Assembly (NCBI RefSeq): GCF_002854065.1
Contig: NZ_CP024147.1
DNA: 64,000 bases
Direction: 5' to 3' (one strand)
From: Escherichia coli
Lineage (GTDB): Bacteria > Pseudomonadota > Gammaproteobacteria > Enterobacterales > Enterobacteriaceae
The notes beneath the pieces are model-generated. The model was not told the origin of the DNA and searched no databases. It was given only the letters and a program-made list of their open reading frames with translations. Shown piece after piece: positions 39,338 to 51,945 of the stretch; positions within the stretch are counted from its first letter, which is position 1, and every line of letters starts with the position of its first letter. A program made the position numbers and the translations under genes.

Positions 39338-40105
39338 GGTAATGACTCCAACTTATTGATAGTGTTTTATGTTCAGATAATGCCCGATGACTTTGTCATG
39401 CAGCTCCACCGATTTTGAGAACGACAGCGACTTCCGTCCCAGCCGTGCCAGGTGCTGCCTCAGATTCAGGTTATGCCGCTCAATTCGCTGCGTATATCGC
39501 TTGCTGATTACGTGCAGCTTTCCCTTCAGGCGGGATTCATACAGCGGCCAGCCATCCGTCATCCATATCACCACGTCAAAGGGTGACAGCAGGCTCATAA
39601 GACGCCCCAGCGTCGCCATAGTGCGTTCACCGAATACGTGCGCAACAACCGTCTTCCGGAGCCTGTCATACGCGTAAAACAGCCAGCGCTGGCGCGATTT
39701 AGCCCCGACGTATCCCCACTGTTCGTCCATTTCCGCGCAGACGATGACGTCACTGCCCGGCTGTATGCGCGAGGTTACCGACTGCGGCCTGAGTTTTTTA
39801 AATGGCGGAAAATCGTGTTGAGGCCAACGCCCATAATGCGGGCGGTTGCCCGGCATCCAACGCCATTCATGGCCATATCAATGATTTTCTGGTGCGTACC
39901 GGGTTGAGAAGCGGTGTAAGTGAACTGCAGTTGCCATGTTTTACGGCAGTGAGAGCAGAGATAGCGCTGATGTCCGGCAGTGCTTTTGCCGTTACGCACC
40001 ACCCCGTCAGTAGCTGAACAGGAGGGACAGCTGATAGAAACAGAAGCCACTGGAGCACCTCAAAAACACCATCATACACTAAATCAGTAAGTTGGCAGCA
40101 TCACC
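39338..40105 (-). mobile_element. insAB: IS1 insertion sequence (768 bp) with insA and insB; no target-site duplication
   Basis: Ends GGTAATGACTCCAACTTATTGATAGTG ... GTAAGTTGGCAGCATCACC; InsA 91 aa (39775..40050) and InsB 167 aa (39353..39856) on the minus strand; 9-bp flanks differ (GGAGCCGTC vs TTGAGCCTG). Confidence 0.95.
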
Positions 40106-41475
40106 TTGAGCCTGTAAAACGTACCACTCGCGCTTATCGTGAAGAAGCAATTATTAAATCCGGTATGAACCCGTTCCTGCTGGATAGCGAAGATGTGTTT
40201 ATCGATTTACTGACCGACAGCGGCACCGGGGCGGTGACGCAGAGTATGCAGGCCGCGATGATGCGCGGCGACGAAGCTTACAGCGGCAGCCGCAGCTACT
40301 ATGCGTTAGCCGAGTCAGTGAAAAATATCTTTGGTTATCAATACACCATTCCGACTCACCAGGGCCGTGGTGCAGAGCAAATCTATATTCCGGTACTGAT
40401 TAAAAAGCGCGAGCAGGAAAAAGGCCTGGATCGCAGCAAAATGGTGGCGTTCTCCAACTATTTCTTTGATACCACGCAGGGCCATAGCCAGATTAACGGC
40501 TGTACCGTGCGTAACGTCTATATCAAAGAAGCCTTCGATACGGGCGTGCGTTACGACTTTAAAGGCAACTTTGACCTTGAGGGATTAGAACGCGGTATTG
40601 AAGAAGTTGGTCCGAATAACGTGCCGTATATCGTTGCAACCATCACCAGTAACTCCGCAGGCGGTCAGCCGGTTTCACTGGCAAACTTAAAAGCGATGTA
40701 CAGCATCGCGAAGAAATACGATATTCCGGTGGTAATGGACTCTGCACGCTTTGCTGAAAACGCCTATTTCATCAAGCAGCGTGAAGCAGAATACAAAGAC
40801 TGGACCATCGAGCAGATCACCCGCGAAACCTACAAATATGCCGATATGCTGGCGATGTCCGCCAAGAAAGATGCGATGGTGCCGATGGGCGGCTTGCTGT
40901 GCATGAAAGACGACAGTTTCTTTGATGTGTACACCGAGTGCAGAACCCTTTGCGTAGTTCAGGAAGGCTTCCCGACGTATGGCGGCCTGGAAGGCGGCGC
41001 GATGGAGCGTCTGGCGGTAGGTCTGTATGACGGCATGAATCTGGACTGGCTGGCTTATCGTATTGCGCAGGTGCAGTATCTGGTCGATGGTCTGGAAGAG
41101 ATTGGCGTTGTCTGCCAGCAGGCGGGCGGTCACGCGGCATTCGTTGATGCCGGTAAACTGCTGCCGCATATCCCGGCTGATCAATTCCCGGCACAGGCGC
41201 TGGCCTGCGAGCTGTATAAAGTCGCCGGTATCCGTGCGGTAGAAATTGGCTCTTTCCTGTTAGGCCGCGATCCGAAAACCGGTAAACAACTGCCATGCCC
41301 GGCAGAACTACTGCGTTTAACCATTCCGCGCGCAACATATACTCAAACACATATGGACTTCATTATTGAAGCCTTTAAACATGTGAAAGAGAACGCGGCG
41401 AATATTAAAGGGTTAACCTTTACCTACGAACCGAAAGTATTGCGTCACTTCACCGCAAAACTGAAAGAAGTTTAA
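40106..41475 (+). pseudogene. tnaA: Tryptophanase tnaA lacking promoter, tnaC leader and first 15 codons (junction inside codon 16, at IS1)
   Basis: In-frame translation directly after IS1 reads [31 protein letters not shown]..., matching TnaA from about residue 17; rest of ORF intact to KLKEV stop. Confidence 0.85.
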
Positions 41476-41565
41476 TTGACACTACAGAGTGGCTATAAGG
41501 ATATTAGCCACTCTCTTACCCTACATCCTCAATAACAAAAATAGCCTTCCTCTAAAGGTGGCATC

Positions 41566-48771: not shown

Positions 48772-48907
48772 TCGCCTCCTTACTTCAACGCTTACACATC
48801 AGTCACGCTGGTTTGAGATAAAAAATACCAGGTGTCTGATGAGTAAGCGTCTATTCCCTATAAATAATTTATGTCGTTAATCGTCCAGTCGCACACCCTC
48901 TGTATGG

Positions 48908-51177
48908 TTAAGCCTGGGTTATATTTTTCACAATATCGGGATACCGTTCGAACCAATCCAGAATATTACGCATCGCGTCACTGATTTTTTTATTAGCTTT
49001 ATATTGATTCTCGCGTCTAAAATTTTGAACAATATTAAGGTTAGAACGTATCTTATTGTCATCGTCAGCAATCTTCTGATTTAATGCCGCTACTTCATCC
49101 TGTACTTCTTGACTATCCCACTTGTCCCTTTTATTATCAAATAAAGTCCTTTTATCATCTACTGATTTATCACGCTTTATGGTTAACTCTTTAATTTCTC
49201 GCAATAAGTCATCGTAATCTTTAATGGAAGCTCTTATTTCCTGATAGTTTTTTAGTAAATCCTCCCAGTTAATTGCAAATGCACCGGAAAAATTTCGAAA
49301 ATCGGAAGCAAACTTATTGAGTTCTGAGTCGTAATATGCTTTGAAATTTTTTATATCTTGCAGTTGGATTTTTAGCGCTTCAATTTGTTTTTTTTCAACA
49401 CCTTCAAAAAGGGGGACAAGGTCACCATAATTCAATTTATAATCAATATCAAATTGGTTATGAGACTCATGTTGTTTTTGTCGAATAAATTTGTCTGAAT
49501 CTTTAGTAGGCATTTTTATATCTGCCGGTGGAATGATTTTATTTATGATAGATTCAATAAACTTAATCCGGTCACTTTCTATCATATTGGTAATAATATT
49601 TTGTGCTTTATATTGCATATCTTTGAAAATAAAAAATTCAGACCTACTATTATTAAAATGATATTTCTCCTCGTACGATTTATTTTCAACATAAAGTGTA
49701 GACAAAAACGACTCTAACTCTGAAAATGCGTTTTTATATTTTTCCTTAATATTTATTTCAGTATTATAAAAATTTAACACATCGCTATTGATAGCACTTA
49801 CCTTTTTTAAGAAATTAGGTATTTGGTCTTTACTTATAGCTCCATCCAGATTCATATAAATGTATTTTATCGGTGTAACACCATCTTCTAAATGAATTGA
49901 ATCTGGATCAATAGAACAGTCTTTGCACCAATCTTCTCTGTAATAATTGTCTAAATTGGCCCTCCGCAAATCACAATAATTAAAGGAGATATTATCAATC
50001 TCTGAATTTTGCTTGCTAAATGAAGTTTTAACAGCCTTCTCGATATTCCCTACGCACTTAGAAAAATTATCATCCAACTTAAGATTTCTCGATCTTCTTT
50101 CAATGTAATCAGAAAAATACTCTTCGGGGTTAAACTTATATTCATCTGAACTCACATTACCAAGACTACAGTTCATTTTAATACTATTCAAATTACAACA
50201 ATCAAACACAGTTCCCTGATCCTGCGCCCTGGCTTCGTTATCACTAGACTTAGTGAATGCGTTTGCCAAAAAATCCATCCCATGAGCATCAAGTTTCGCT
50301 ATCGTACAGTTATAAAAATGACTCAGAAGTATACTCGAACCAGGACAATATCCCCCCTGAATTGTGCAATCCTGAACAAAAGACTGCATAAAGAGATAAG
50401 AACCTAATTTTTCATTAATACTTACAGGTTGTGTAACGTTGTAGATTTTAGACGTCTCACATCTATAATTTTCAATTTTGCATTTAGAAATAAAACAACC
50501 TTTAAACATACCTTTTATTGGTTTATTATTTTCGGACCCCACTGTATTATCAACAGGCTCATAAAGCTGTATATTGTTGAATTTACAATCCTCAAAATAG
50601 CAATTTTCAAAAACAGGACCTTTAAGATCCACACTTTTTATCTCCCCTGAAAAAATTACATTTTTAAAACTACAATATTTTAGTGAATTCAAAACATCCT
50701 TAGACAACGATGATAAATTGATTGTTGTATTAATAATAGGAATTTTATTTTTAATCAGCGTCGCAAGTTTTACAGAATAATCATCAAACGTTAATCTCAT
50801 CAAGGGAGAATTATCAAAATGTAAATCATCGAGATAATTATCAAGCGTTAATCTCTCTGAAGAAACCTGTTTTTTTTCGTTATCATTCGAAGTAGCCCCC
50901 GTGTAGAGATTAAAGGATCTACTCACAATAACTTCATTATTTTCATTTGTGGTAAAGTCTGTCTTAGTACTAAATAGCCATTGTTGTTCTTTTTTTGCCA
51001 GAGATTTAATCTTATCGAACACCTCGGCTTTATTATCAACTTTCGTGACAAATTCGTAAATTAAGCCTTTGATTTCTTTAATATGAGATCCAGGAAAAAG
51101 ATCGCGAACAAACTCCCACAGTGTACGTTTTTTAAATAAATCCCCTTTGCCATCAAGAATATTTTCAATATCCTTAG
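48908..51177 (-). pseudogene. AT-rich pentapeptide-repeat (beta-helix) effector-like gene P1, 5'-truncated by IS1
   Basis: ORF track calls 704 aa from an internal GTG at 51022, but the frame stays open up to the IS1 edge, and the upstream part (KDIENILDGKGDLFKKRTLWEFVRDLFPGSHIKE...) aligns with residues about 56 onward of paralog P2; the N-terminal about 55 codons and promoter are missing. Confidence 0.7.
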
Positions 51178-51945
51178 GGTAATGACTCCAACTTATTGAT
51201 AGTGTTTTATGTTCAGATAATGCCCGATGACTTTGTCATGCAGCTCCACCGATTTTGAGAACGACAGCGACTTCCGTCCCAGCCGTGCCAGGTGCTGCCT
51301 CAGATTCAGGTTATGCCGCTCAATTCGCTGCGTATATCGCTTGCTGATTACGTGCAGCTTTCCCTTCAGGCGGGATTCATACAGCGGCCAGCCATCCGTC
51401 ATCCATATCACCACGTCAAAGGGTGACAGCAGGCTCATAAGACGCCCCAGCGTCGCCATAGTGCGTTCACCGAATACGTGCGCAACAACCGTCTTCCGGA
51501 GCCTGTCATACGCGTAAAACAGCCAGCGCTGGCGCGATTTAGCCCCGACGTATCCCCACTGTTCGTCCATTTCCGCGCAGACGATGACGTCACTGCCCGG
51601 CTGTATGCGCGAGGTTACCGACTGCGGCCTGAGTTTTTTAAATGGCGGAAAATCGTGTTGAGGCCAACGCCCATAATGCGGGCGGTTGCCCGGCATCCAA
51701 CGCCATTCATGGCCATATCAATGATTTTCTGGTGCGTACCGGGTTGAGAAGCGGTGTAAGTGAACTGCAGTTGCCATGTTTTACGGCAGTGAGAGCAGAG
51801 ATAGCGCTGATGTCCGGCAGTGCTTTTGCCGTTACGCACCACCCCGTCAGTAGCTGAACAGGAGGGACAGCTGATAGAAACAGAAGCCACTGGAGCACCT
51901 CAAAAACACCATCATACACTAAATCAGTAAGTTGGCAGCATCACC
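51178..51945 (-). mobile_element. insAB: IS1 insertion sequence (768 bp), second copy, same orientation as the first; no target-site duplication
   Basis: InsA/InsB ORFs identical to copy 1 (51615..51890 and 51193..51696); 9-bp flanks differ (TATCCTTAG vs GTCATCTCA). Confidence 0.95.

Follow-up and report, generated by a model that had tools for sequence, protein, structure and literature searches.

Why should two intact and identical copies of the insertion sequence (IS) IS1, lying on either side of an 11-kb segment of an Escherichia coli chromosome, both lack the short target-site duplication that a fresh insertion leaves behind? The question is raised by a stretch of 64,000 nucleotides (assembly GCF_002854065.1, contig NZ_CP024147.1), here called the window, in which IS1-A occupies positions 39338..40105 and IS1-B positions 51178..51945, both on the minus strand. 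A first-pass annotation, made from the sequence alone, had proposed that a rearrangement or deletion, and not a fresh transposition, lies behind each copy. Near-identical genomes bear this proposal out, as IS1-A is the junction of an inversion and IS1-B stands in place of ~518 bp of ancestral DNA. With a probability of about 85%, we consider both copies to be ordinary, intact elements of an IS1-rich commensal E. coli lineage, and their missing duplications to be the scars of a series of IS1-driven rearrangements.

Two identical IS1 copies without target-site duplications

IS1-A and IS1-B agree at 768 of 768 positions, with no extra matching base beyond either end, and a repeat scan of the window returned no further long repeat besides this pair. 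The direct orientation reported by the first-pass annotation is likewise correct: the copies lie on the same strand, 11,072 bp apart, with their transposase genes on the minus strand, the right inverted repeat (IRR) end GGTAATGACTCC... on the left and the left inverted repeat (IRL) end ...GGCAGCATCACC on the right. Both have the length (~768 bp) and the ends of the IS1 family, i.e., ~23-bp imperfect terminal inverted repeats (GGTGATGCTGCCAACTTACTGAT / GGTAATGACTCCAACTTATTGAT), which here agree with each other at 18 of 23 positions. On the minus strand of IS1-A, insA spans 39775-40050 and insB′ 39353-39856. The 91-aa open reading frame (ORF) of InsA encodes a zinc ribbon and a helix-turn-helix (PF03811 and PF12759), the 167-aa ORF of InsB′ encodes the DDE_Tnp_IS1 domain (PF03400), and both match the NCBIfam IS1 transposase model NF033558. 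The frameshift motif TTAAAAAAC (A6C, for the −1 frameshift between insA and insB′) is found at IS coordinate 305.

The four 9-bp flanks, GGAGCCGTC / TTGAGCCTG at IS1-A and TATCCTTAG / GTCATCTCA at IS1-B, all differ, and a target-site duplication is absent at both copies. The first-pass annotation had allowed that matching 9-bp duplications might have escaped it, had its flank reading been off by a few bases. No pair of 35-bp flank windows shares a 6-mer or anything longer, so a boundary mis-set by a few bases cannot hide a duplication. Normally, IS1 duplicates 8-9 bp of its target, and its transposition within the chromosome is replicative (PMC12428005). A positive control comes from strain A3176, in which a simple-insertion IS1 that is 100% identical and lies in the same intergenic region as IS1-B is bordered by a clean 9-bp duplication (TAAAAAAGG); the 8-9-bp duplication is a property of a fresh insertion and not of the IS1 element itself.

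An inversion that ends at IS1-A

The first-pass annotation had proposed comparing related genomes for the ancestral state of both sites, and an alignment to E. coli strain 100416 (NZ_CM128593.1), the closest relative that is IS-free at the loci compared, resolves both. In the coordinates of this genome, the BLAST map gives the window as 5080154..5080683 joined to 1..38807, followed by IS1-A, the reverse complement of 5073204..5062133, IS1-B and the reverse complement of 5061614..5049560. Over ~62 kb the two sequences differ by 21 single-nucleotide polymorphisms (SNPs) and by no other insertions or deletions; the left block contributes 12 SNPs and no insertion or deletion in 38,807 bp, the 11-kb segment between the IS1 copies 5 SNPs, all of them private to the 100416 sub-branch. 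With so few SNPs, and with the 5 inner ones private to that sub-branch, 100416 is effectively the ancestor. The proteins encoded between the IS1 copies are identical to those of 100416 except for TnaB G350V and YieH E204K, and at both positions the window has the common allele. The exact junctions of the window occur in no complete RefSeq E. coli genome.

The two flanks of IS1-A map to opposite strands of 100416, ~46 kb apart across dnaA, and the strand switches at IS1-A, which identifies this copy as an inversion junction. A block of roughly 44-46 kb carrying dnaA is inverted, and IS1-A is one of its junctions. The right-hand 39.3 kb of the block fill the window from 1 to 39337, from the rpmH-dnaA intergenic region and dnaA-dnaN-recF-gyrB through ilvBN, uhpABCT and a DUF1198 gene to the remnant of a porin gene; they are collinear with 100416 and lie on the strand opposite to the DNA right of IS1-A. 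The first 40 kb of the window have a positive GC (guanine and cytosine) skew, and the stretch from 44 to 64 kb has a negative one. As oriC lies ~11 kb past the right end, negative skew is expected throughout, so the left block is the flipped one. Within it, dnaA-dnaN-recF-gyrB (531 to ~6555, plus strand) now point toward oriC and would be transcribed head-on to the replication fork.

Two genes are broken at IS1-A. To its left, a LamB-family carbohydrate porin gene beside uhpT (38264..39337, minus strand) retains its 3′ 1,074 nt and has lost its 5′ 306 nt (102 codons), the break lying exactly at the IRR end of the element; the 317-aa ORF of this remnant was found on 114 contigs. To its right, the tryptophanase gene remnant tnaA′ (40106..41475, plus strand) begins at tnaA nt 47; the first 46 nt, the tnaC leader and the promoter are gone. 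A non-functional gene and an indole-negative strain are predicted.

Both junctions of the inversion are seen in CUWW06 (NZ_CP182139.1), a strain of the same lineage that is 99.9-100% identical to the window and has the same layout. On one side, its order runs from the truncated porin gene and an IS1 to mdtL-yieH with a truncated effector gene, a further IS1, and the second effector gene up to phoU. At the reciprocal junction, nlpA is followed by an IS1 in the opposite orientation, a truncated ShET2 gene (also split by an IS2), mnmE, yidC, rpmH and dnaA. Two oppositely oriented IS1 copies hence flank the block in CUWW06, and the window shows one junction only. The far-junction IS1 has its IRR toward the tnaA 5′ side and its IRL toward the porin 5′ side, as duplicative inversion and recombination alike predict. 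Draft assemblies with a truncated porin gene repeatedly contain contigs of ~44.1 kb, the size of the inverted block between its two bounding IS1 copies.

The far junction of CUWW06 (record positions 4642409-4645100; L054 22410-25100) has further peculiarities. A toxin gene of the ShET2/EspL2 family is cut there by the IS1 and split by the IS2, and everything from the 5′ end of the porin gene to nlpA is missing, including a phosphotransferase system (PTS)-cellobiose-like operon, adeD, adeQ and others. Erosion at this site is much heavier than at the junctions in the window.

A proposed order of events

Two contigs bear on the sequence of these events. UWLH01000016.1 (96,989 bp), from a sister strain, shows no mismatch to the window across the 15 kb aligned, carries an intact tnaA and an intact 802-aa effector gene in the ancestral gene order, and ends, by coordinate arithmetic, at most 1 nt from the porin/IS1-A junction. 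Another contig of 97.5 kb (L014) has a porin-IS1 junction identical to that of the window. In the uninverted order, 97 kb is the distance from the porin site to the next contig-breaking repeat (probably rrnC), and the inverted layout cannot fit it. The porin gene is intact in other members of the clone and in 100416. A break at the porin junction in a sister strain with intact tnaA and uninverted order argues that IS1 entered the porin gene first and that the inversion and IS1-B came later.

The history that we propose comprises four steps. The first, insertion of IS1 into the carbohydrate-porin gene next to uhpT, is shown by the sister-strain contig. This copy would then have become one end of the ~44-46-kb inversion, the other end of which lies at the start of tnaA; the inversion itself is read directly from the alignment, whereas its route may have been either intramolecular replicative ("duplicative") transposition into tnaA or homologous recombination with a second, independent IS1. 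The far junction of the window strain should accordingly consist of an oppositely oriented IS1 outside the window, ~7 kb to its left. In a third step, IS1-B would have entered the AT-rich DNA that separates two divergent effector genes. Finally, the flanks of both copies would have been eroded by IS1-promoted adjacent deletions, in which an end of the IS attacks a nearby site, the IS stays and the interval is lost. In the window, this would account for 33 bp of tnaA at IS1-A and, in part or in full, for the 518 bp missing at IS1-B; in relatives, it would account for much more.

Erosion of the flanks

At IS1-B, an intact 768-bp element replaces the ~518 bp, the boundary being uncertain by 3 bp. 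Missing are the first 139 nt of the 802-codon effector gene, the 300-bp divergent promoter region and the first 79 nt of a pentapeptide-like gene, and these 518 bp combine the losses from the left and right flanks of the IS1 that originally inserted in the AT-rich intergenic region.

Among relatives, the ends of the IS1 copies are fixed and the points at which the adjoining DNA resumes vary. To the right of IS1-A, it resumes at tnaA nt 14 in an assembly of the National Collection of Type Cultures (NCTC; L013), at tnaA nt 47 in the window and one further contig (L050), and at position 42734 in CUWW06 and two metagenome scaffolds (L051, L052), where tnaA and most of tnaB are gone. The left flank of IS1-A ends at 39337 in the window and at 39121 in CUWW06. 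For IS1-B, the left endpoints are 51177 (window), 51151 (metagenome scaffolds L049, L051 and L052) and 49508 (CUWW06), and the right endpoints 51946 (window) and 53817 (CUWW06). L013 keeps 33 bases more of tnaA than the window; with its junction at nt 14 and that of the window at nt 47, at least 33 bp of tnaA have disappeared next to the IS1-A of the window after the inversion. Across the members of the lineage, the losses thus start exactly at an IS terminus, retain the IS and have variable or nested distal ends, and this combination of fixed IS1 ends with varying adjoining endpoints is the signature of IS1-promoted adjacent deletion. In studies of IS1 and Tn9, intramolecular target-primed transposition yields adjacent deletions when the attack occurs in cis and inversions when it occurs in trans, and these deletions and inversions begin precisely at the terminus of the element and end at variable distances (PMC9330008).

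Two candidates for additional endpoints were discarded. A 173-aa effector call in L013, considered as a marker of the IS1-B position in that assembly, results from frameshift errors of the assembly, and three matches that seemed to share the right junction of IS1-B (H63-H65) represent a different IS1-associated deletion, from the pentapeptide gene to phoU, in another lineage.

Both loci receive IS1 elsewhere, too. The IRL-end junction at tnaA nt 14 (AACATCTCC...) of the NCTC relative (L013, 9079-9113) is also present, in the same orientation, in the unrelated K-12-like strains AH62 and AH65 (L065 5276), the IS1 there being 97.1% identical; IS1 thus seems to end at tnaA nt 14 recurrently. An IS1 lies close to the tnaA junction of the window in sixteen complete genomes, within ~0.5 kb upstream in the cases inspected. 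The AT-rich intergenic region between the espY4-like and pentapeptide-like genes (window 51100-52000) is a repeated IS1 target in different lineages (L056 4001-4768, L055 4466-5233 and L049/L051/L052), with the simple insertion in A3176 and, in YZLc1-3, a deletion reaching phoU; the IS1 endpoint in the three metagenome scaffolds lies 26 bp from the left endpoint of IS1-B in the window. In GPEC1446, which belongs to another lineage, mnmE and tnaC are separated by an IS1 of 98.8% identity (L002 8002-8769) that has no target duplication, and the ShET2-like gene is absent; here, a deletion associated with IS1 arose independently at the same locus.

Alternative explanations

Among the alternatives, homologous recombination fares best. 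RecA-dependent exchange between independent IS1 copies might have produced all rearrangements, the inversion from porin::IS1 and tnaA::IS1 and the flank losses from direct pairs. The lineage is indeed rich in IS1, with at least 40 IS1 places in CUWW06 and ~30 in 100416 vs a median of ~10 per genome; in unrelated strains, IS1 has repeatedly hit the start of tnaA and the effector intergenic region, which makes second insertions nearby plausible; and the final structures of this route are the same as the products of transposition. However, recombination alone requires one extra insertion for each of at least 7 distinct flank endpoints, some of them 26-33 bp from the IS end, and neither an uninverted tnaA::IS1 strain nor two close IS1 copies were seen in the lineage. 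Adjacent deletion via intramolecular transposition, in contrast, is documented IS1 behavior (PMC9330008). We therefore regard a history by recombination alone as unlikely.

Several points nevertheless weigh against the transposition-driven history that we prefer. As the IS1 copies are identical, recombination and duplicative transposition are indistinguishable for the inversion. That the porin gene was hit first is deduced from the geometry of contigs and not from read-through sequence of one genome. The 518-bp loss could have arisen from two nearby insertions followed by recombination, and the endpoint at 51151 might be an independent insertion instead of a nested deletion; it is also present on L049, a scaffold with no more than 91% identity in the neighboring DNA. 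For the window genome itself, the second inversion junction, outside the window, was not recovered, and the predicted fusion ORFs between the porin 5′ end and IS1, with or without a 9-bp duplication, are absent from the record. The absence of these fusions suggests that the far junction of the window strain is probably eroded as well, as in CUWW06. Look-ups of the far junction with PTS-IIA, ShET2, TnaB, LacI and MnmE returned only genomes of the ancestral type or unrelated ones, and a search for homologs of the porin N terminus revealed no common lineage-specific fragment; the far junction was seen only in CUWW06.

A functional role of the present arrangement is improbable. The ~45-kb inversion could be kept by selection, e.g., for an altered dosage or expression of the dnaA operon, or the direct IS1 pair could be a live unit for amplification or excision of tnaB-mdtL-adeP, and the sole observation in favor of either idea is that the arrangement persists in many isolates. 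The first-pass annotation had named the pair as a substrate for deletion of the intervening DNA. Formally this holds, for a deletion of 11.8 kb, but the product is not found: a chimeric query joining the truncated porin gene, IS1 and the truncated pentapeptide gene matched 0 of 5,426 complete E. coli genomes. CUWW06 likewise keeps its two IS1 copies apart.

That the configuration stems from contigs mis-joined across IS1 is scarcely credible. IS1 is multi-copy and longer than short reads, and mis-joins at IS elements are common in draft-derived assemblies. Against this stand an 11,220-bp contig (L050) identical to window 40031-51250, which stands for 20 similar places; the porin/IS1-A junction at four loci, including an NCTC long-read chromosome that reads through porin, IS1 and tnaA; and the closed CUWW06 genome with the same topology, while the GC skew supports the inversion independently.

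Finally, the idea that the 12.6-kb unit of IS1, 11 kb and IS1 moved in as a block can practically be dismissed: identical direct IS1 copies bracket the segment as in the composite transposon Tn9, but GGAGCCGTC and GTCATCTCA, which flank the unit on its outside, do not form a duplication, the DNA on either side of IS1-B is contiguous in the ancestor but for the 518 bp, and the inner segment is the native tna-yieH neighborhood and holds its native place with respect to pst, atp and oriC. Thousands of E. coli genomes have the segment at this very site, and synteny thus refutes the idea. What is left of the composite element suggested by the first-pass annotation is possible movement, not arrival.

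Genes of the window

The gene list that the first-pass annotation gave for the inter-IS1 segment holds for tnaA′, tnaB, mdtL, yidZ, yieE, yieF/chrR, adeP and yieH and fails for its last entry, "P1′". The native genes from 41566 to 48771 are intact, with tnaB, mdtL, yidZ, yieE, yieF/chrR and yieH on the plus and adeP on the minus strand. The gene labeled "P1′" (48908..51177, minus strand) is not phage P1 material; it is a truncated EspY4-like type III effector pseudogene, without its first 139 nt and its promoter. Its remaining ORF (48908-51022) has 704 codons vs 802 in the full gene and a weak pentapeptide match; in relatives, the label given by the Prokaryotic Genome Annotation Pipeline (PGAP) is espY4 or type III effector. 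On the other side of IS1-B, the remnant of a pentapeptide-repeat/type III effector-like gene (51946..53053, plus strand) lacks its first 79 nt and its promoter. A second, paralogous type III effector gene (53522..56035, minus strand) is undisrupted in the window and partly deleted in CUWW06. Judged by their sequences, tnaA, the porin gene and both effector-island genes flanking IS1-B are pseudogenes.

Short, diverged direct repeats of 73-79% identity (48759-48814/53373-53428 and 50441-50530/55085-55174; D2 and D3), ~4.6 kb apart, are explained by the paralogy of the two minus-strand type III effector genes (at 48908-51022 and 53522-56035). These genes belong to an island of low GC content (30-40%), in place of which K-12-like strains have the cbr-yieIJKL-bgl region. 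A further stretch of low GC content (41%) lies between ilvN and uhpA (28000-32600) and contains two hypothetical genes without a Pfam family on record; this accessory islet is common to 100416 and the window and present in only part of E. coli.

Implications and comparison with known systems

As a clean and fully reconstructed worked example, the locus illustrates that a missing target-site duplication is a reliable flag for an IS copy that marks a rearrangement, and that a near-identical, IS-free relative lets the history be read, i.e., insertion, then inversion, then stepwise erosion of the flanks. For the strain, the rearrangements mean that a porin and two orphan type III effector genes are lost and that the dnaA region, close to the origin, is flipped. 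An E. coli predicted to be indole-negative is also relevant to biochemical identification.

Inversions bounded by IS elements are seen with IS1, IS26 and IS150, also in experimental evolution. The present case resembles them in the ~45-kb segment between oppositely oriented, identical IS1 copies and in the original donor junction kept on one side. It differs in that the block includes dnaA-dnaN-recF-gyrB, ~24 kb from oriC, and in that the duplication that would mark a single step is eroded. With the adjacent deletions promoted by IS1 and Tn9 through attack in cis, it shares the start exactly at the IS1 terminus, the retained IS1, the series of endpoints and the lack of a duplication; unlike those, the deletions described here occurred in natural isolates and not under laboratory selection, and both ends of both copies were active. 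The composite transposon Tn9, with cat between direct IS1 copies, likewise has two identical direct IS1 around a segment, but at the present locus there is no flanking duplication, the cargo is native in its native neighborhood, and there is no sign of movement as a unit. IS damage to the tna operon in indole-negative Shigella was reportedly described by Rezwan, Lan and Reeves in 2004 (cited in PMC12795559), with tnaA inactivated by an IS together with rearrangement or deletion, as it is here, whereas the lineage studied here is E. coli. An origin from Shigella sonnei, to which the IS1 load, the damaged tnaA and an inverted, dnaA-containing block mentioned in PMC12795559 had pointed, was rejected, as the source databases assign the lineage-specific proteins, including the 317-aa porin remnant, to E. 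coli and the nearest genomes are E. coli, too. Everything observed at this locus matches known IS1 behavior, and no new mechanism is involved.

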